63,942 nt of DNA, filler included, from Caldilineae bacterium (GCA_037446815.1; 3 parts of 3 records of this genome joined end to end with filler, not necessarily neighbours in it), one strand, 5' to 3'; counted from the whole stretch's first letter, positions 4,064-26,690 are shown. The notes: a model not told the origin generated them from the letters alone. Translations and numbers: made by a program.

Positions 4064-5197
4064 ATGAGAGTCTCCTGCCTGCAAGACAACCTCGCGAAGG
4101 GCCTTTCCATCGTCCAGCGCGCGGTCCCAAGCCGCTCGTCCCTTCCCATCCTGGGCACCATCCTGGTGGCGACCGACGGCCCCCGCCTGAAACTGGCGGC
4201 CACCAACCTGGAAATCGGCATCAACTGCTGGATCGGCGCCAAGGTAGAGGACGAAGGCGCGGTGGCCATTCCGGCGCGCCTGCTGGTGGACTTCGTCAAC
4301 TCGCTCCCTCCCGAGCGCATTGAGATGGACCTGAACGTGCGCACGAATACCCTGCACCTGAAGTGCGCGCGGTTTGAAGCCAACATGAACGGCATGGACC
4401 CCTCCGACTTCCCCGTGATCCCTGCGCCGGAGGAGAACAACCGCGTGTCCATAGATGCCGACGTCCTCCGCGATGTCATTCGGCAGGTTACCATCGCCGC
4501 CGCCACCGACGAGAGCCGGCCTGTGCTGACCGGCGTCTCCGTGACGATGGAGGGCGACCGCGCCACCTTTGCCGCCGCCGATGGGTTCCGCCTGTCCGTG
4601 CGGAGCGCGCCCCTCAAAGCGGCTGCCCCGGCGCCCACGACGTTCATCGTCCCCGCCCGCGCCCTGGACGAACTGGCGCGCATCGCCACGGATCAGGAAG
4701 ACCCGGTGGAACTATGCATCCCGGAGGGGCGCAATCAAATCCTGTTCCACCTCAGCAGTGTGGACCTGGTGTCGCAACTGATAGAGGGCCGCTTCCCCGA
4801 CTACAAGGCGATCATCCCCCGCACGTTCACGACGCGCACGGTCATGAACACGGGCGAACTGTTGCAGGCCGTCAAGACGACAAACATCTACGCCCGCGAG
4901 GCGTCCAACATCGTGAAACTGCGCATCGTCCCGGCCAATGACCTGGCGCCCGCGCACGTGGAACTGAACGCCACCGCCGCGCAGGTGGGCGACAACGTGG
5001 GCGAGGTGGACGCGACGGTGGAGGGAGAGGGGCTGGAGATCGCCTTCAACTCGCGCTACCTGATAGATGTCCTGTCGGTCATCTCTGAGGCGCAGGTGGC
5101 GCTGGAGACCACGACACCCGCCAGTCCGGGGGTCATCCGCCCCGTGGGGTCCGACGACTTCGTGCACGTCGTGATGCCCATGCACATCACGCAATAG
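4064..5197 (+). CDS. dnaN: DNA polymerase III beta sliding clamp
   Basis: ATNLEIGI, DESRPVLTGV, AADGFRLS, LIEGRFPDY, IAFNSRYLID, VVMPM; RBS GGAGG before MRVSCLQ. Confidence 0.97.
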   Translation: MRVSCLQDNLAKGLSIVQRAVPSRSSLPILGTILVATDGPRLKLAATNLEIGINCWIGAKVEDEGAVAIPARLLVDFVNSLPPERIEMDLNVRTNTLHLKCARFEANMNGMDPSDFPVIPAPEENNRVSIDADVLRDVIRQVTIAAATDESRPVLTGVSVTMEGDRATFAAADGFRLSVRSAPLKAAAPAPTTFIVPARALDELARIATDQEDPVELCIPEGRNQILFHLSSVDLVSQLIEGRFPDYKAIIPRTFTTRTVMNTGELLQAVKTTNIYAREASNIVKLRIVPANDLAPAHVELNATAAQVGDNVGEVDATVEGEGLEIAFNSRYLIDVLSVISEAQVALETTTPASPGVIRPVGSDDFVHVVMPMHITQ

Positions 5198-9875: not shown

Positions 9876-11273
9876 ATGACCAACACAACCGACCGTCAGG
9901 ACAAACTAACGCCCCTTGAGGCATGGCAGGCAACGCTTGGAGAACTGCAACTGCAGTTAGCGAAGTCAACCTTTGACGCGTGGTTGAAGGATACCACGCT
10001 GGTAGCCGCTGAAGACGGCGTCTACACCATCGGCGCGAGGAATTCCTACGCCCGCGACTGGCTGGACAACCGCATGCGCAGCCTCATCAAGCGGACGTTG
10101 GCGCGCATCGCGGGCCGCCAGGTGGACGTGCGCTTCATCGTGGACGCCAAGCCGGTGGAATCGCCCGCTCCCAGAGACCTCATCGGGTACGATCCCGCAG
10201 AGGAAGCGCCGGCCCAGGGCAACAAGCCCAACGGGCAATCGTGCGCCCTGAACCCTCGCTACACGTTTGAAACCTTCGTGGTAAGCGGCGGCAACCGCGT
10301 GCCGTTTGAAATCTCCAGGGCGGTGAGCGAGCGCCCAGGCGCGGCTTATAACCCGCTCTTCCTGTACGGCGGCGTGGGCCTGGGCAAGACCCACCTCCTG
10401 CACGCCATCGGCCTTAGCGCCGCCCGCCGCGGGCTGAACGTCCTCTATGCCCCGTCCGAGCAGTTCACCAACGACCTGGTATGCGCCATCCGCGCCCACA
10501 CAACCGAGGACTTCCGCAACAAGTACCGCGGCGTGGATGTGCTCCTGCTGGACGATGTCCAGTTCATCGCCGGCAAGGACTCCTCGCAGGAGGAGTTCTT
10601 CCACACGTTCAACGCCCTGCACAGCGCCAACCGCCAAATCGTCGTGGCCTGCGACCGCCCCCCGCGGGATGTGGTCGGCCTGGACGAACGTCTGCGCTCG
10701 CGGTTTGAAGGGGGCCTCGTGGTGGAGATCGCCCCGCCCGATTTCGCCGCCCGCATGGCCATCCTCCAGGCCAAGTCCGCCGCCAGAGACTGGCGCGTGC
10801 CCCAGGCCGTGCTGGAACTCATCGCCCAGACCGTGGAGACGAACGTGCGCGAGTTGGAGGGGGCGCTCAACCGCGTCATCGCCCAGTGGGAGGCGCTCCG
10901 ACAGCCCCCGACCGTGGAGACCACGCAGGCCATCCTGCGGGATATGCTCCCCTCCAGGGGGCGGCCTTCGCCGGAGGCCATCGTGCAGGAGGTGGCCGAC
11001 TACTTCGGCATCGCGCCCGAAGACCTGCTCGGGCCGTCCCGCAAGCAGCAAATCGCCATGCCGCGACAGATCGCCATGTACCTCCTGTGCGCGGAGACCG
11101 ACCTGTCGCTGGAGCAAATCGGCCTGTTCATGGGCAACCGCAATCACACCACCATCCTGCACGGTAGGAACAAGGTTCGCGCCCTCATGGAGACCGACCC
11201 CACCACGCGCCTGCACGTGCAGGCCATCCGAGAGCGGATGCGCCAGCCCACCGCCGCCCGCCAAATGGCGTAG
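9876..11273 (+). CDS. dnaA: Chromosomal replication initiator DnaA (or paralog)
   Basis: LNPRYTFETFV, YNPLFLYGGVGLGKTHL, LLLDDVQF, QEEFFHTFN, RLRSRF, NVRELEGAL, PRQIAMYL, RNHTTILH. Confidence 0.93.
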   Translation: MTNTTDRQDKLTPLEAWQATLGELQLQLAKSTFDAWLKDTTLVAAEDGVYTIGARNSYARDWLDNRMRSLIKRTLARIAGRQVDVRFIVDAKPVESPAPRDLIGYDPAEEAPAQGNKPNGQSCALNPRYTFETFVVSGGNRVPFEISRAVSERPGAAYNPLFLYGGVGLGKTHLLHAIGLSAARRGLNVLYAPSEQFTNDLVCAIRAHTTEDFRNKYRGVDVLLLDDVQFIAGKDSSQEEFFHTFNALHSANRQIVVACDRPPRDVVGLDERLRSRFEGGLVVEIAPPDFAARMAILQAKSAARDWRVPQAVLELIAQTVETNVRELEGALNRVIAQWEALRQPPTVETTQAILRDMLPSRGRPSPEAIVQEVADYFGIAPEDLLGPSRKQQIAMPRQIAMYLLCAETDLSLEQIGLFMGNRNHTTILHGRNKVRALMETDPTTRLHVQAIRERMRQPTAARQMA

Positions 11274-19656: not shown

Positions 19657-20055
19657 CTAGAACTCGCAGGGCTTGCCCGCCCAGTGGCGCTCCACCAGGG
19701 CGTCCAGCACCCTGCGCGCGCCCTCAAAGTGCGCCTGCATGTCCTCGGATTCCACGCCCAGCGCCGCGCTGAACGTGGGCCAGTCCACGTAGGCCAGTTC
19801 GCCCACGCGCCGACCGTGGATGAGGTGGCACAGCGTGTCGGCGGTAACGAACATCTCCGGGTCGCACATGCCGCACTCAAACTTGACCGCCTCAATCCGC
19901 TCGTCCACGATGCGGGCGTAGAGGTACAGGTGGTCTTTGCTCCCGCGGCACGCCAGCGCATCGGCGCAGACAGTGGCATCGGCCAGCCGCCCGAGATACG
20001 GGCTTGGCCCCGCGAAGATTTCACGGAACTTCTGGATGATGATCTTGTCCGACAT
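19657..20055 (-). CDS. Divergent SufU/NifU-N-like protein
   Basis: CRGSKDHLYLY...VKFECGMCDP layout matches the IscU/SufU fold; directly downstream of the SufS-like gene. Confidence 0.65.
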   Translation of the reverse strand: MSDKIIIQKFREIFAGPSPYLGRLADATVCADALACRGSKDHLYLYARIVDERIEAVKFECGMCDPEMFVTADTLCHLIHGRRVGELAYVDWPTFSAALGVESEDMQAHFEGARRVLDALVERHWAGKPCEF

Positions 20056-20081
20056 ACCCCTTCACCGGAAAGCCCGCGCGT

Positions 20082-21353
20082 TCAGGACTCCCGCACGGGC
20101 AAGATGGGCAAGCCCTCAAACATGGGTTCGGAGAGGATTTCGCCCACCGTGTCCAGAAAGACCCTGCACTCGTCCAGCGTGTTGTACATGTACAGCGAGA
20201 CCCGCATGGCGGTAACGTTGCGGCTGATGCGGCGGGCATTGAACCATGCGTTGACGCAGAACATGCCGGCGCGCACCATGATGTTGCTGCGCTCGTCCAG
20301 CATGTCGGCCAGGAGTCCCAGTCCGGGCTTCTTGGTGAAGAGGCAGAGGATGCTGCCGCGCTTTTCCGGCTCTGGGGGGCCGATGATCTCAAACTCCTCA
20401 AACTGCGACAACCCGTCGGTGAGATACCGATTGAGCGCCACCTCGTGCTCGTGGAGGGCGTGCATGTCCAGGCGCTCCAGGTACTCCACCGCCGCGCCCG
20501 CGCCGATGCGCCCGGCGTAGTCCTGCAATCCGGCCTCGTACTTGTAGGGCGGGGGGAGGAACTCCGGCGGGCGGTCGGCCCACGTGTCGCGGATGGTGTC
20601 GCCGCCCACGAGGAAGTTGTCCATGTGGGCGTAGTGTTCGCGGCGCACGTACAGCGCGCCTACGCCGCTGGGACCGCACATCTTGTGCAGCGAGAAGGCC
20701 AGGTAGTCCACGCCCAGCGCCTGCACATCCACGCGCTGGTGCGGCACGCTCTGCGCCCCATCCAGCAGCACCTGCACCCCGCGCTCGTGGCACATGCGGA
20801 TAATCTCCTGCGCGGGGATTTCCACGCCGTCCAGGTTGGCCACGTGCCCGAAGGCGGCCAGTCGCACCCGCGGGTCTTTGAGCGCCGATTCCAGCGCATC
20901 CAGGTCAAAGGTGTTGTCCTCGCGCACGGGGACAACGCGGTGTTCTATGCCCATCTTAGCCGCCAGGTACTGCCACGGAACGAGGTTGGAATTGTGCTCC
21001 TTGTCGGTGGTGAGGACCACGTCCCCCCGCTGGAACGGGAACGTGCGGGCCACCAGGTTGATGCCCTCAGTGGTGTTGCGGGTAAAGATGATTTCGTCGG
21101 GGTGCGCGGCGTTGAGGAATCGGCGGATGCTTTCCCGCGCCGCTTCCACGCGCTCGTTAGTCTCCCGCGCGAACCAGTGATGGCTGCGGCCCGCGCCCCC
21201 ACAGGCGGGGAACTGGGTGTAGTAGGCGCACATGGCGTCAATCACGGGCCGCGGGCGCAGGGTCATGCAACTGTTGTCAAAGTATATCGGGGGCTTGCCG
21301 TTGCGCTCGCGGGCCAGCGGCTCAAAATCGGCACGGATTTGGCTCACGTCCAT
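20082..21353 (-). CDS. SufS-like cysteine desulfurase (class V PLP enzyme)
   Basis: IRADF, IYFDNS, FTRNTTEGIN, EHNSNLVPW, DGAQSVPH, FSLHKMCGPSG, RAGMFC. Confidence 0.88.
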   Translation of the reverse strand: MDVSQIRADFEPLARERNGKPPIYFDNSCMTLRPRPVIDAMCAYYTQFPACGGAGRSHHWFARETNERVEAARESIRRFLNAAHPDEIIFTRNTTEGINLVARTFPFQRGDVVLTTDKEHNSNLVPWQYLAAKMGIEHRVVPVREDNTFDLDALESALKDPRVRLAAFGHVANLDGVEIPAQEIIRMCHERGVQVLLDGAQSVPHQRVDVQALGVDYLAFSLHKMCGPSGVGALYVRREHYAHMDNFLVGGDTIRDTWADRPPEFLPPPYKYEAGLQDYAGRIGAGAAVEYLERLDMHALHEHEVALNRYLTDGLSQFEEFEIIGPPEPEKRGSILCLFTKKPGLGLLADMLDERSNIMVRAGMFCVNAWFNARRISRNVTAMRVSLYMYNTLDECRVFLDTVGEILSEPMFEGLPILPVRES

Positions 21354-21445
21354 CGTCTCATCTCCGAAACGTCGCGGCATGGCGTAGGCCCATTATAGCG
21401 CGCAGCGGCGCTCGCGGCAATATGGGCGGGGCGGGGCCTACCCCA

Positions 21446-21720
21446 TCACCCCCTGGCCCCCTTTTCCCCGCAGGCAGGGAAGAGGGGGAATGCCTGGCGC
21501 AACGTGCGACGCACCTGCGAGGTGCGTCGCACGTTTATTGGCGGTGGTGATACCCGTAGCGCCGGACTGAAGCCCCGCGCTACGGGCAGAAGCCCTTTCG
21601 GGGCTGACCGCCCGCAGGGCTTTGTGCCCTCAGCCCGATGCTTCAGCGTCGGGCGGCCCCACCCTTTGCCCAATCCGTGCCATCCGCGTCATCCGTGGAG
21701 GGACAACGTGCGTCGCGCGT
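21446..21720. repeat. Dense mosaic of four palindromic repeat types
   Basis: CACCCCCTGGCCCC hairpin; GTGCGACGCAC palindrome 21501-21535; GTAGCGCCGGACTGAAGCCCCGCGCTAC REP-like unit; CAATCCGTGCCATCCGCGTCATCCGTGG. Confidence 0.75.
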
Positions 21721-21725
21721 CATCG

Positions 21726-22511
21726 CTACAGGTATAACTCCGGCCGCAGACCCTGGGCCACGGGCAGCCGCCGCCGCGCCTTGGCTACCTCGCCAATGTC
21801 CACATCGGCGCGCAGGATTTCTTCCCCCTCGCCCGCCTCGGCCACGCGCTCGCCCCACGGCGAGGTAATCACCGAGCGCCCCGCCAGCGCCTCGCCGTTG
21901 CACAGGCCCACGCCATTGGCCCCGATGAGGAAGGCCAGGCTTTGCAGCGCCGTCGCCACGGTCAGGGTGCGCCAGTGCTCCCCCCGCGTCCGCGGCCACT
22001 GGGCGGCGACGAGCAGGAGTTCCGCCCCTTCGGCCATCATGCGCTGGAACAGGCCGGGGAAGCGCAGGTCATAGCAGATGGCGAGGCCCACGCGCCCGAG
22101 GCCCGTGGGCACGACGACAACCTCGCCGCCGGGGGTGAAGTAGGCCGGCTCGGCGAGCAGGGGAATCAGGTGCGCCTTGCGGTAGCGCGCCAGAAGTCTC
22201 CCCTCGGGCCCGGCCAGCGCCAGCGTGTTGTAGAACCGCTCGCCGTCGCGCTCGGCCATGCCCCAGGCCAGGTAGGCGCGGTACCGCGCGGCCAGGCCCG
22301 CCATCGTCGCGGTCGTTTCGCCGTCCATCGGCTCGGCCAGGGCAGGCAGGTTGGGCAGGTCATAGCCGCAGGTGGCGAGTTCCGGCAACACCACCACCTG
22401 CGCGCCCTCGTCCAAAGCCTGCCGCGCCAATTCGGCCATGCGGCGGCGGTTGCGGGCCAGGTCGCCCGCGGCAATCTCCATTTGCGCCGCGGCAACCCGA
22501 ACAACGGGCAT
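21726..22511 (-). CDS. Carbon-nitrogen hydrolase (nitrilase superfamily, YafV/Nit-like amidase)
   Basis: Catalytic triad motifs VVLPEL, YRKAHL, ICYDLRFP; GRSVITSPWG. Confidence 0.92.
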   Translation of the reverse strand: MPVVRVAAAQMEIAAGDLARNRRRMAELARQALDEGAQVVVLPELATCGYDLPNLPALAEPMDGETTATMAGLAARYRAYLAWGMAERDGERFYNTLALAGPEGRLLARYRKAHLIPLLAEPAYFTPGGEVVVVPTGLGRVGLAICYDLRFPGLFQRMMAEGAELLLVAAQWPRTRGEHWRTLTVATALQSLAFLIGANGVGLCNGEALAGRSVITSPWGERVAEAGEGEEILRADVDIGEVAKARRRLPVAQGLRPELYL

Positions 22512-22591: not shown

Positions 22592-24067
22592 CTACGGCGC
22601 GTACCGGAACGGATGCCGCGCCGCCTCTTTCTCCGCGACCAGTTCCTCGTAGGTCGGGCGGCCTTCCAGCGCCTTGCGAACCGCCGCCTTCATCGCCTTG
22701 AAGTTGTTGATGCGGACGCGGAAGCGGTTGCTGGCGCCCGGATGCACGAACACATTCGCGATGAGCACGATGTCGTCCAGCAGCGCCGCCGGCAGCGTGC
22801 CGTCCTTGACCAGCGCCTCCAGGGCCATGACAACGCCGCTCGCGGCGTGCTCGTACACGTTCTCGGCCTGGCGCTTCGTGCGCACCGTTACCGTGGGCAC
22901 GAGCAGCGTTCGCGGGCGCTCAAAGATGACACGCAGTTCGTGGCCCGGGCGCGGCTCGGCCAACGCCCGCGCGATGGCCTTCCCCACCGGGCCATCCTTG
23001 CGGCCGATGAGCAGGTCAATGTGGGCCAGTTCCGAGAACGGCGGGCCGGCGAACCCCTCGCCCACGAGGAGTGTCATGTCCCGCACCTCGCTCGGGGCGG
23101 CGGGCGGCTTTGGGAACTGGCTCGTTGCCGTCGGGCCGCCCGGGTACAGGTGGTACGTCATGGGGCGCGGCGGAATCTTGCCCAACTCCTCCAGGACGCC
23201 GCGCACCTCCTCGTAGTCCTCGCGGCGGAAGGCGTCGCCCTTCATCATGGGGTGGCGCGAATCGCCGATGGGAAGCCCCAGCAGTTGCAGCGCCTCCTTG
23301 ACCGCCTGGGTCGGGCCTTGCCGAGCCAGGATGCGGACGAATCGCTGGATGCGCGCCATGAGCGTCTGCGCCGTCGCCAGGTCGCCCGACAGGACGGCCT
23401 TGTAGATGGTCTGCCACACGTCGGGGATGACGTTGGCGCTGGCGAGGATGGCGCCGTCGGCCCCCATGGCCAACGCCGCCGGCACGATTTCGTCGTGGCC
23501 GGTGAAGATGCCGATCTTGCCGCGCACCTTCTCAAACACCGCCATCAGGTAGGGCATGTCGCCGCTGGAATCCTTGATGCCGACGACGTTCTCCAGATAG
23601 GCCATGCCCTCGGTCGTCCACCATTGATAATGGGTGCCCGCGCACTGGGGGATGTTGTACAGGATGAGCGGCACGCCCAGTTTGTTCAGCGCATCGTAGT
23701 GATCGTACACCTCGTTGAACGAAGGCTTCAGGTAGTAGGGCGCGGCAACCAGGGCAGCGGTAACGCCGGCATCCCGCGCCCACGCCGTCATCTTCACGGT
23801 CTCGCGGGTGGACGGGTAGGCGGTACCGGCGACGACCGGCACGCGCCCGTTGACCTCATCCAGGGCGATTTCAATGGCCCGCTTGCGCTCGTCCTCCAGC
23901 ATGTACACGAACTCGCCCGTGGTGCCGCAGGGGACGATGCCGTTGACATGGGGCAGGACGTAGCGGATGAGTTCTCGGTAGGCGGCCTCATCCACGCGGT
24001 CGTCCTTGGTGAAGGGCGTAACCAGGGCGGGGAAGATTCCTTTGAACCAGTCGGGTTTCTTGGACAT
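22592..24067 (-). CDS. DapA/NAL-family aldolase fused to a C-terminal formaldehyde-activating enzyme (Fae) domain (copy B)
   Basis: N-term ALVTPF, CGTTGEF, PYY, LYNIP, GIKDSSG; C-term (about 22592-23077) LVGEGFAG, ELAHIDLLIG, GPVG, VFVHP, NFKAMKAAVRKALEGRP, RHPF as in Fae. Confidence 0.85.
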   Translation of the reverse strand: MSKKPDWFKGIFPALVTPFTKDDRVDEAAYRELIRYVLPHVNGIVPCGTTGEFVYMLEDERKRAIEIALDEVNGRVPVVAGTAYPSTRETVKMTAWARDAGVTAALVAAPYYLKPSFNEVYDHYDALNKLGVPLILYNIPQCAGTHYQWWTTEGMAYLENVVGIKDSSGDMPYLMAVFEKVRGKIGIFTGHDEIVPAALAMGADGAILASANVIPDVWQTIYKAVLSGDLATAQTLMARIQRFVRILARQGPTQAVKEALQLLGLPIGDSRHPMMKGDAFRREDYEEVRGVLEELGKIPPRPMTYHLYPGGPTATSQFPKPPAAPSEVRDMTLLVGEGFAGPPFSELAHIDLLIGRKDGPVGKAIARALAEPRPGHELRVIFERPRTLLVPTVTVRTKRQAENVYEHAASGVVMALEALVKDGTLPAALLDDIVLIANVFVHPGASNRFRVRINNFKAMKAAVRKALEGRPTYEELVAEKEAARHPFRYAP

Positions 24068-24093
24068 GGGTCTCTCCTTCTACCTGATGTGCC

Positions 24094-25515
24094 TCACGCG
24101 CCGAATGCCTGGCGGATGGCAGCGCCTGCCGCGGCAAGCACCGCCTGGTACAGGGCGTGGCGATCCAGGGCCTTGGGATGCACGCTGGCCTGCACCAGCA
24201 TCACGTGCGTGTCCATGGCGGATTTGGGAATGACGCCCTCTTCCAGCGCGTCTACGATGGCGCGGGCTACTGCTGCCTGGGTCGGGCCGTAAATCATGTT
24301 GGCCTGGCGCAGGTTCCGCAGTTCCGCCGTCGGGACGATGAGCGTGGACGGTCGCACGGTGAGATTCGGCTCCAGGATGGTGGTCAGCGCCTCGTAGCCG
24401 TGGCGCGGGTAGGTGAGTTGCAGGGCGAACACTTCGCCGACGATGCCGTCCTTCGGCCCGGCGATGAGGTCTACTTGGACGTTTTCCGGCTCGGCGCCCG
24501 CCGCTCCGGTACCCACGCGCAGCGACTCTGCCCGCACCTGCTGGGGCGAGATGCCCAGCGCGCCGAACCGCTCGGCGACAGGCCCGGTCGGCGGCGCATA
24601 GGCGCTGTCTTCGGAGTCAATCTTGCCCAGGCGCTCCAGTTCCAACTGAATCTCGGCCCGGTCCTCGTGGGTGAGGCTTCCGCCCACCTTCAGCGGTCGC
24701 CGCGCCTGGCCCACGGGAATCCCCATCATGTTCAGCGCCTGCTTGACGGCCAGCCCGCCCCCGTAGCGGCAGAAGATGCGCGACAGTTTCTGCACGCTCC
24801 GTTGCAGGGCGCGGGCCTCCTCAATGCGGCCCTCCTGGACGGCGGCGTAGACCTTCTGCCACACCTCGGGGTAAACGTTGGCGCTGGCCAGAATCATGCC
24901 GGTGCACCCGCCCGCCAGCGCAGGCAGCACCACCTCGTCGTGGCCGATGAACACGTCAATGCGCCCCTGCACCATCTCCAAGATTTCCATGGTGTAGGTG
25001 AGGTTGCCCGATGAGTCCTTGATGCCCACGATGTTCGGGATCTCCGATAGGTCCTCCACGACGTTGCGCGGCAGGTAGGCGTCCACCACCTGCGGGATGT
25101 TGTACAGCAGGATGGGGAGGTCCACCGCCATCGCCACATCGTAGAAATGCTGGTAGATGCCCTTGTCGGACGGGTGGAGGAAGAAGGGCGTAACGACAAG
25201 GCAGGCGTTGGCTCCGGCATCTTTCGCGTTGCGGGCCAGGAGAATCGTCTCCTTGGTGCCGGCGGCGCCCGTTCCGGCGATGACCGGCTTGCGGCCCGCG
25301 ACTTCGTCCACGACGATGGAGATGACGCGCTTCTGCTCGTCGGGCGTCATGTACGGGAACTCGCCCGTGGTGCCGCAGGGGACAAACCCGTCCACATGGG
25401 GCAGGAGGTGGCGCACCAACGCGCGCAGCGCCGATTCGTCCACCTCTTCGTCTTTGGTAAATGGCGTTACCAGCGCGGGGAAGACGCCCCGCAGCCACGG
25501 CAGTTTTGCAGGCAT
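24094..25515 (-). CDS. DapA/NAL-family aldolase fused to a degenerate Fae domain (copy A)
   Basis: N-term ALVTPF, CGTTGEF, LYNIP, GIKDSSG; C-term (about 24094-24522) VDLIAGPKDG, EPNLTVRPSTLIVP, RQANMIYGPTQAAVARAIVDALEEGVIP. Confidence 0.85.
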   Translation of the reverse strand: MPAKLPWLRGVFPALVTPFTKDEEVDESALRALVRHLLPHVDGFVPCGTTGEFPYMTPDEQKRVISIVVDEVAGRKPVIAGTGAAGTKETILLARNAKDAGANACLVVTPFFLHPSDKGIYQHFYDVAMAVDLPILLYNIPQVVDAYLPRNVVEDLSEIPNIVGIKDSSGNLTYTMEILEMVQGRIDVFIGHDEVVLPALAGGCTGMILASANVYPEVWQKVYAAVQEGRIEEARALQRSVQKLSRIFCRYGGGLAVKQALNMMGIPVGQARRPLKVGGSLTHEDRAEIQLELERLGKIDSEDSAYAPPTGPVAERFGALGISPQQVRAESLRVGTGAAGAEPENVQVDLIAGPKDGIVGEVFALQLTYPRHGYEALTTILEPNLTVRPSTLIVPTAELRNLRQANMIYGPTQAAVARAIVDALEEGVIPKSAMDTHVMLVQASVHPKALDRHALYQAVLAAAGAAIRQAFGA

Positions 25516-25624: not shown

Positions 25625-26575
25625 TTACGGCTTCGGGATGGCCAGGCCCTTGCAGCCCTGCTTGGAGAGGATGAGGTCGGGCTGGTTCTCCTGAATCAGG
25701 GTGTGGATAATCTCGGCGTACTTCACCTTCTCGCGGGCGAAGTCGGCGAGGGCCTGCGGGCTGGTCCACGGCTTGTACAGCGCCCCAGGCCCGGCGGCGC
25801 AGGCCGGCCCAGGCTCTATCTTGAAGTAGCACGGCGCGCAAACCCGCGCCATCTCGGCCCCGTCGTAGAACCGATTGTACCCGCCAAAGGACTCGGCCAG
25901 ATAGATGTGCAGGTCCATCGGGATGTCCACCGCCTGGCGGATGGAGGCCAGTTGCGGCAGGCTCAGGTCGCCGACGGGGTTGAACGTCCCCGCGCCCAGC
26001 GACTGGAGCACCTTGCCGCCGGCGGCCGAGGCGTGCCCCGCGTAGATGGAAACCTTGAACGTTACGTCCTCCGGAATCTCCCCGGCCTTGCGGAGTTCGT
26101 TCAGGAGCCAGAGGAGGCCCTCATCAATCACGAGAAAGCCGCGGAAGCCGATCTCAATGCACGTGAGAATGTCGGTGATGACGTAGCGGAGTTGATCGGA
26201 GCCGCGGAAGCGGAGGCCGGAGAGGCCGCCCTCGGGCGTTACCACTTGCCGACCCACATCCCACGCCGCACGCGGCCCAGGGGTGAGAATGACCTCCAAC
26301 TTGTTCTCGGCGGCGATTTGGGCGAAATCGCGGAGTTCCGCCCGATCCAGGAGCGTGGCGCCCATGACTACGGAGATGACACGGTGGATGGGGATTTTGC
26401 GCCGGTTCATCTCATCAACAAGCGCTTCCAGAACGTTGGGGCGCTCCACGCCGGAGATCTCCATGCGGTAGTGGGCGCCATCGGGGAAGCGCTTGGGGCT
26501 AGATGGAAGGTCGTAGGCGTCCCGTCCGGGGATGCCCACCCGCTCCATCATCTTGGCGACGCGATCCATATTCAT
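25625..26575 (-). CDS. U32-peptidase-like protein of unknown function
   Basis: SPKRFPDGAHYRMEISGVE and IGFRGFLVIDEGLL recall a family usually annotated U32; RBS AAGGAGG. Confidence 0.55.
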   Translation of the reverse strand: MNMDRVAKMMERVGIPGRDAYDLPSSPKRFPDGAHYRMEISGVERPNVLEALVDEMNRRKIPIHRVISVVMGATLLDRAELRDFAQIAAENKLEVILTPGPRAAWDVGRQVVTPEGGLSGLRFRGSDQLRYVITDILTCIEIGFRGFLVIDEGLLWLLNELRKAGEIPEDVTFKVSIYAGHASAAGGKVLQSLGAGTFNPVGDLSLPQLASIRQAVDIPMDLHIYLAESFGGYNRFYDGAEMARVCAPCYFKIEPGPACAAGPGALYKPWTSPQALADFAREKVKYAEIIHTLIQENQPDLILSKQGCKGLAIPKP

Positions 26576-26661: not shown

Positions 26662-26690
26662 AGTATACCATGCCCGATGGGGTGTGTCAA
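26662..26690 (-). promoter_or_regulatory. Promoter of the U32-like / aldolase-Fae / amidase cluster
   Basis: Minus strand TTGACA-17-TATACT with extended TG. Confidence 0.65.

Follow-up and report, generated by a model that had tools for sequence, protein, structure and literature searches.

Introduction

A 2005 structure paper on the formaldehyde-activating enzyme (Fae) reportedly placed tetrahydromethanopterin (H4MPT) between adjacent subunits and named His22 as the acid catalyst; Gln88 is said to flip on binding, and the C-terminal arm reportedly becomes ordered on binding. The glutamine of the GPxQ motif contacts the pterin in solved Fae. In the dihydrodipicolinate synthase (DHDPS) family of aldolases, Lys161 is the Schiff-base residue, working with Tyr133 and Thr44/45 (Escherichia coli DHDPS numbering), and Arg138 of DHDPS binds aspartate semialdehyde. 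PanB, which also serves as a point of comparison below, is a metal-dependent enzyme. In this study, we analyzed two neighboring genes, copy A and copy B, each of which encodes a DHDPS-type aldolase fused to a C-terminal Fae-like domain. They lie in a stretch of 63,942 nucleotides (nt; hereafter the window) from a Caldilineae bacterium (GCA_037446815.1), whose source assembly is a Chloroflexota metagenome-assembled genome (MAG) of 3.19 Mb that is 93.6% complete. A literature search, which mostly did not cover subscription journals, found no study of a DHDPS-Fae fusion. A previous sequence-only reading of the window had proposed that the two Fae domains degenerated in a complementary manner and form an obligate hetero-oligomer. 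We found that four functional Fae motifs are divided exactly between A and B, that this division is conserved throughout both families, and that the two genes nearly always occur together. Our tentatively preferred explanation, which falls just short of an even chance, is that the two genes form an operon with an upstream gene, U316, and that A and B are ancient aldolase-Fae paralogues acting together as one heteromeric enzyme.

Results

Domain architecture of the two fusion proteins

On the minus strand, three genes stand in a row: U316, then copy A, then copy B. All window coordinates given below refer to this strand unless otherwise stated. Copy A (24094..25515) encodes 473 amino acids (aa), with the aldolase at residues 8-289 and a Fae-like domain without the catalytic His and the C-terminal arm at residues 335-471. 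Copy B (22592..24067) encodes 491 aa, with the aldolase at residues 8-278 and a Fae-like domain at residues 335-487 that has the His and the arm and no PNL loop or GPxQ motif. Both copies match the Pfam families DHDPS (PF00701; E-values of 2.8e-73 for A and 5.5e-71 for B) and Fae (PF08714; 8.4e-36 and 3.4e-34), and nothing else. Both copies lie above the PF08714 cut-off of 27 (A, 123.8; B, 118.6) and also exceed the cut-off of the TIGR03126 Fae model (120.4 and 130.4 vs 118.05). Neither is a full-length match to the Fae-Hps model NF009833, which covers the Fae parts only (positions 2-141 in A and 3-161 in B, of 392) at 111.1 and 89.4 bits, below the cut-off of 274. The DapA equivalog model TIGR00674 scores A above its cut-off (230 vs 206.15) and B below it (199.4). 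Alignment of the Fae parts to the solved chain 1y5y spans that whole chain (E-values of 3.7e-18 and 5.7e-21 for the two copies), and the N-terminal domain fold matches 2yxg with a template modelling (TM) score of 0.93 on the target's length. No solved structure in the PDB covers more than the aldolase half of the fusion.

A monomer model of B built with AlphaFold2 (AF2) reached a mean predicted local distance difference test score (pLDDT) of 89.6 and a predicted TM score (pTM) of 0.88. Its low-confidence parts are one aldolase loop (residues 141-146) and the invariant tail (residues 485-491), where pLDDT falls below 50. As modelled, such a tail fits the pattern expected of an arm that would become ordered on a partner or ligand. 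The model also contains a confident extra beta-hairpin in the aldolase-Fae linker (residues 300-319, window 23111-23170), with strands at 300-306 and 313-319.

Fae motifs are divided between A and B

To define the two families, orthologues were taken from 80 related loci in public Anaerolineae and Chloroflexota MAGs. A total of 68 full-length A and 58 full-length B sequences were obtained, which together with the window's own copies gave sets of 69 A and 59 B; five partial A sequences, six partial B sequences and three unrelated stand-alone DHDPS paralogues were left out.

At the Fae His22 position, as aligned to 1y5y, copy B carries His349 (23021..23023), and His is present in 59/59 B sequences. 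The same position is Gln347 in copy A (24475..24477), with Gln in 67/69 A sequences and His in 0/69. The PNL loop of A, Pro383-Asn384-Leu385 (24361..24369), keeps Pro and Leu in 69/69 sequences each and Asn in 40/69, and a five-residue deletion affects this region in 59/59 B sequences. The GPxQ element of A, Gly410-Pro411-Thr412-Gln413 (24277..24288), whose Gln aligns with Fae Gln88, has Gly, Pro and Gln each in 69/69 sequences; the Gln position in B is occupied by Gln in 0/59 and by Ala in 51/59. The tail RHPFRYAP occupies residues 484-491 of copy B (22595..22618), and its RHPF core was found in 57/59 B sequences, with contig ends truncating the remaining two, and in none of the 69 A sequences. 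Within the window, B retains AHIDL and the C-terminal ARHPFRYAP, has YEHAAS in place of the FGPAQH of Fae and lacks five residues at the PNL loop; A reads VQVDL, retains ILEPNLTVRP and YGPTQ, and stops 20 residues early, with no HPF. Neither chain alone carries the full Fae motif set (His22, PNL, GPxQ and tail). The sequence-only reading had described both patterns in the window, namely a B that keeps the His and the HPF tail and has lost the PNL loop and GPxQ, and an A with the reverse; both are borne out at the codons concerned and hold across the 59 B and 69 A family members, with the counts given above.

The aldolase halves

Residues equivalent to Thr44, Thr45, Tyr133 and Lys161 of DHDPS are invariant in 69/69 A and 59/59 B sequences, and both copies keep what is, by these residues, a complete Schiff-base aldolase centre. 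At the Arg138 position, 60/69 A sequences have Val (the rest Thr, Ala or Met, never Arg) and 54/59 B sequences have Cys (the rest Thr). After YNIPQ, A continues as VVDAYLPR, with its Arg present in 69/69 sequences. B continues as CAGTH.xWW; all 59 sequences have the Gly, the His and the first Trp, and the second Trp is an invariant column. At the positions of DHDPS Tyr106/Tyr107, the window reads TPFFLHP in A (Phe111-Phe112, 25180..25185) and APYYLKP in B (Tyr111-Tyr112, 23732..23737). The second of these positions is Phe in 67/69 A sequences, and in B it is Tyr in 42/59 and Phe in 17/59. The Tyr/Phe contrast that the sequence-only reading had noted between the two aldolase halves is therefore real in the window and not general.

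A and B occur and evolve together

B follows A on the same strand in 68/80 loci. From the 12 other loci, ten genomes were searched whole, and 10/10 have a second Fae-domain gene on another contig, which covers the full profile, as in B, in nine and is cut by a contig end in one. In the last 2/80 genomes, A alone was found, at a contig end, and A and B are thus present together in 78/80. The earlier expectation that the two always co-occur comes close to the mark: they nearly always do, with these two exceptions.

We also drew a class sample of 401 genomes, evenly distributed, in which the 89 Fae-positive genomes were counted as having the pair and the other 312 as lacking it. Among the 89, 80 have exactly two copies, six have one (fragmented MAGs, 75-94% complete) and three have three. 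The presence of the pair in this sample is mostly all-or-none by family. In the genus of the source organism, which as sampled is also the whole order, the pair was found in 5/5 genomes; in a phylum-wide sample it was found in 3/401 genomes. One Bathyarchaeota locus also has the A-then-B tandem. The A-type gene at this locus (L208:4001-5427) is split into frames, with a change near 4258-4318, by an assembly error or a real break, and the B-type gene after it is intact.

Divergence among A orthologues closely tracks that among B orthologues, with mean distances of 0.30 and 0.31 and a correlation of r = 0.87 (1378 pairs, 53 genomes). The pace of change is equal for the two copies, and neither is decaying.

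In the window, a 26-nt spacer (24068..24093) separates the stop of A from the start of B, with GGAGA (24073-24077), taken as a ribosome-binding site, lying 5 nt before the ATG. Among the 51 loci with both open reading frames complete, the gap between A and B is at most 50 nt in 27 and more than 200 nt in 22.

Intact single-copy relatives and the origin of the pair

A search of 1.84 billion representative sequences returned only about a dozen full-length fusion clusters, which were sorted by eye into A-type, B-type and one intact type (P0003). The intact type has all four motifs (AHIDL, EPNM..KP, YGPAQ and RHPF), and its relatives were found in 79 Asgard loci. Neither a second fusion gene nor a U316 relative stands beside the Asgard fusion in any of the 79 loci, within at most 5 kb on each side and with some loci cut by contig ends. 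In 5/5 Asgard genomes, there is one intact fusion, with a Fae profile score of 187-200 bits compared with about 121-127 bits for A and B, and one further Fae gene in a frame of 430-464 aa, which is presumably a Fae-Hps.

A quick tree was built from 49 rows, with six stand-alone DHDPS sequences as the root. The fusion family forms one clade apart from stand-alone DHDPS (Shimodaira-Hasegawa-like approximate likelihood ratio test, SH-aLRT, 98). Within this clade, all A-types fall on one side (88), and the intact type and all B-types on the other (83). A recent duplication inside Chloroflexota was marginally rejected (approximately unbiased test, p-AU 0.038). Judged from the tree, the A/B duplication is old and A and B are ancient paralogues. 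In some other Chloroflexota (L188-L191), we observed single divergent Fae-like genes in frames of 184-382 aa, with Ser-His in place of Ala-His and with WGAAQ (WGAGQ or WGGAQ in two of them) where Fae has FGPAQ.

Carrier genes and the DapA question

The H4MPT pathway appears to be missing from this lineage. The source genome has no Mch and no Ftr, and its only match to beta-RFAP synthase scores 22.8 bits against a cut-off of 113.5; in the genus, Mch was found in 0/5 genomes and FolD in 5/5. H4MPT, which the sequence-only reading had taken as the ligand, is thus a poor fit. With Mch lacking and FolD present in all five of these genomes, tetrahydrofolate would be a more likely carrier in this bacterium than H4MPT, provided that a pterin is bound at all.

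No DHDPS-family gene other than A and B was found in the source genome. No true DapB was found in 5/5 genomes of the genus, where the only matches are partial DapB_N hits of 28-34 bits in frames of 103-523 aa (most 338-356). We considered whether either copy could be a true DapA and rejected it on the Val (A) or Cys (B) at the Arg138 position and the lack of a true DapB.

U316 and its association with PanB

U316 (25625..26575), directly upstream of A, encodes a 316-aa protein with no Pfam or NCBIfam match. Its mean column identity is 87% (20 sequences). The AF2 model of U316 (pLDDT 76.7) has an alternating strand/helix pattern that points to a TIM-type barrel, and a fold search of the PDB returned generic barrels only, with TM scores of 0.40-0.57. 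Its Atlas neighbors are named 'U32 family'.

U316 is a frequent, non-obligate partner of the pair. Strong U316 orthologues are present in 61/89 class-sample genomes with the pair vs 13/312 without it. In loci that lack the pair and have U316, PanB adjoins U316 in 5/10 examined: in L197, L199, L201, L203 and L204, the U316 orthologues (about 600 bits or more) are directly by PanB or one gene away. PanB itself was counted by eye in 25/89 genomes with the pair vs 203/312 without it, the latter number including the unpublished genomes G732 and G773. The PanB family (PF02548) has no match in A or B, none in the source genome and 0/5 in the genus. This conserved, unnamed barrel family seems to be tied to hydroxymethyl-transfer enzymes. 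That the pair tends to take the place of PanB beside U316, with PanB rarer where the pair occurs, suggests by analogy a PanB-like reaction, in which a hydroxymethyl group would pass between a methylene-pterin and a 2-oxo acid.

We also examined the possibility that the pair is a strict replacement of PanB. It was rejected on the co-occurrence of both in 25/89 genomes and on the absence of PanC and of the archaeal phosphopantothenate synthetase from the genus, whose routes to pantothenate and lysine may be imported or unrecognised.

The source genome also encodes a second, distant U316 paralogue (G000:C43:9397-10311, equivalent to L207:5598-6512; 245.8 bits), which is present in 5/5 genomes of the genus. 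Its cluster contains a cupin, a creatininase-family hydrolase, a Zn-dependent alcohol dehydrogenase, a GFO/IDH/MocA oxidoreductase and an IclR regulator.

Other features of the locus

The only recurrent neighbors of the pair are U316 (21/80 loci), an unknown 422-aa protein (9) and a transaldolase (7). The 422-aa protein, which belongs to no Pfam family, is encoded just upstream of A (L019:1968-3236 and eight other loci), and the transaldolase/FSA-family gene lies about 3 kb upstream (L032:2170-2916 and six other loci). Upstream of U316 in the window, a consensus scan found a promoter-like site (26662..26690), TTGACA-17-TATACT with a TG, which matches at 11/12 positions and is a pattern match only. 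Downstream of B, also on the minus strand (19657-22511), are genes for a CN-hydrolase (21726-22511), a SufS-like class V aminotransferase (20082-21380) and a 132-aa protein (19657-20055). These accompany the pair only in the three nearest relatives, with all three genes in L004 and L005 and the CN-hydrolase alone in L003. At a distance of 11 kb from the pair is a DnaA gene (9876-11273, plus strand) with Bac_DnaA, DnaA_N and DnaA C-terminal domains, and a replication origin may be near. Window positions 1-28885 are on one contig (C25), and positions 28886-63942 lie off that contig; the window hence joins unlinked DNA.

Discussion

Proposed mode of action

The observations above can be combined into one proposal. 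U316, A and B would be transcribed as one operon. Copy A would supply the central Fae segments, the PNL loop and the start of the GPxQ helix, and copy B would supply the N-terminal hairpin with the acid catalyst His together with the C-terminal arm. Under the simplest interpretation, a contact between the Fae domains of A and B would rebuild one complete Fae-type site. At this site, formaldehyde would be taken from, or passed to, a tetrahydropterin and be handed on to a 2-oxo acid held on the fused aldolase as an enamine or Schiff base, which would amount overall to a PanB-like hydroxymethyl transfer or its reverse. The parts of this proposal differ in their strength. Some kind of A/B complex is moderately probable, and a composite Fae-type site built from A and B is somewhat less than evenly likely. 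The case for a shared site is made because the four functional motifs are exact complements and each of them is invariant in its own family; it is not based on a global statistic.

That statistic comes from a test of the columns that are identical in six canonical Fae and 11 intact fusion sequences, a column being scored as kept when at least 80% of A or of B retain it. The 46 columns that qualify comprise 12 retained by both copies, 9 by A alone, 16 by B alone and 9 by neither copy (one-sided Fisher p = 0.43). In a version based on similarity groups, the corresponding numbers for 79 columns are 34, 12, 23 and 10 (p = 0.75). The A-only and B-only columns are segregated along the domain, with 11 runs among 35 labels (shuffle P = 0.025): the B-only columns lie in the N-terminal hairpin and the C-terminal third, and the A-only columns in the centre. 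The claim of complementary degeneration in the sequence-only reading is thus upheld for the four named motifs, which are exact complements, and is not extended by the column counts, which show no excess over independent loss.

Several points weigh against the heteromeric enzyme with a composite site. By count, the losses in A and B look independent, and columns lost in both are not depleted. Part of the B-only signal is a mere C-terminal truncation of A. The aldolase halves do not show the Tyr107 contrast for 17/59 B orthologues. Two kinds of subunit cannot alternate around a ring of five, which means that the assembly would differ from that of solved Fae. Aldolase columns by themselves do not fix the position of the intact type (p-AU 0.447 and 0.474) or, with it, the order of losses. 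As to the proposed chemistry, 28/89 genomes with the pair lack U316. Nor does the pair replace PanB cleanly: both are present in 25/89 genomes, and PanB is also absent from 109/312 genomes that lack the pair. Moreover, PanC and the archaeal phosphopantothenate synthetase were each found in 0/5 genomes of the genus, and ketopantoate would therefore have no known use there.

Alternative explanations

We consider a first alternative rather improbable. A and B could be separate homo-oligomers that catalyze different steps of one pathway, each Fae domain having taken on a new role; that of A might, for example, bind a pterin without catalyzing a reaction, and that of B might be structural or catalyze something else. 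The two genes would then be found together owing to a need for both steps rather than to binding between the proteins. Consecutive enzymes would show the observed co-occurrence and operon linkage just as well, and the conserved divergence of the aldolase pocket after YNIPQ suggests different substrates for A and B. Column counts without excess complementarity are also in line with this explanation, as are the 22/51 loci in which the genes are more than 200 nt apart and the 12/80 loci in which B is not in the sequence adjoining A. However, neither copy has all the residues that are kept in canonical and intact Fae, and neither Fae domain by itself looks able to carry out the known reaction. The exact complementarity of the four named elements also speaks against two independent enzymes, as does the single-copy Asgard form, which retains all four motifs.

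A further alternative, which we regard as still less probable, keeps the A/B heteromer and dispenses with a shared Fae site: one Fae domain, or one whole subunit, would serve as scaffold or regulator, and the chemistry would take place in the aldolase centres. The same co-occurrence and rate data apply here. The low Fae profile scores of A and B, which are far below those of the intact Asgard fusion, would be understandable, as would the lack of an H4MPT pathway in the genome, and the B model packs the Fae domain confidently on its own aldolase domain (pTM 0.88). A scaffold would be unlikely, however, to keep the His of B (59/59), the GP and Gln of A (69/69) and the RHPF of B (57/59) invariant. 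Finally, that A is a true DapA for lysine with an accessory C-terminal domain, and B a spare paralogue, is highly improbable in spite of the TIGR00674 score of A and the lack of other DHDPS-family genes in the genome, given the Arg138 position (never Arg in A, mostly Cys in B), the missing DapB in 5/5 genomes of the genus and the separation of the fusion family from stand-alone DHDPS in the tree.

Returning to the heteromeric A/B enzyme, its most specific form would be an obligate A/B heteromer in which A provides the pterin pocket of each composite site and B the His and the C-terminal arm. This site would be retuned from H4MPT to tetrahydrofolate and would deliver formaldehyde straight to a class I aldolase centre. 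Such an enzyme would act, together with U316, as a metal-free PanB-like hydroxymethyltransferase, and the pathway that it serves in Anaerolineae, Bathyarchaeia and Asgard archaea would be an undescribed one. Taken as a whole, we consider this combination unlikely, at a level between the first and the second of the above alternatives.

Significance

The fusion family is widespread in abundant sediment and hot-spring lineages, with 89/401 class genomes as well as Asgard and Bathyarchaeota loci. Annotation pipelines that use TIGR00674 would name copy A DapA, since it passes the cut-off of that model, and correcting this label matters for the metabolic reconstruction of these uncultured groups. 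If the composite site is real, the pair would be a clear natural case of a homo-oligomer that became an obligate heteromer by complementary loss, and it could represent a new connection of one-carbon carriers to 2-oxo acids.

Comparison with known systems

Fae of M. extorquens (1Y5Y/1Y60; Methylorubrum) resembles the C-terminal domains of A and B, which align with it over the whole chain. It is a stand-alone homopentamer, whereas here the domain is fused behind an aldolase and its motifs are split over two paralogues. The archaeal Fae-Hps proteins are like the pair in that Fae is fused to a formaldehyde-handling carbon-carbon lyase; in contrast to the pair, Fae is N-terminal in them and the partner is hexulose-phosphate synthase. 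The sequence-only reading had regarded the fusion of a pentamer-type Fae to another enzyme as unusual, and this curated family (NF009833) is a precedent. Fae-Hps is not known to occur in a paired, half-degenerate form.

With the DHDPS/NAL family (PF00701, including DapA), A and B share the fold and the equivalents of Thr44, Thr45, Tyr133 and Lys161. They differ from DapA in lacking the Arg138 equivalent and a DapB context, in having Phe for Tyr107 in A and in carrying an additional C-terminal Fae domain. PanB (PF02548) has no sequence relationship to the pair; it is similar in the chemistry proposed here, in which methylene-tetrahydropterin would donate a hydroxymethyl group to a 2-oxo acid, and in the shared neighbor U316. 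A related reaction is that of the promiscuous E. coli RhmA, which a review describes as converting pyruvate and formaldehyde to 4-hydroxy-2-oxobutanoate in an engineered homoserine cycle (PMC8879981). Unlike the pair, RhmA represents an engineered promiscuous activity on free formaldehyde, whereas the natural fusion described here would couple such chemistry to a pterin carrier.

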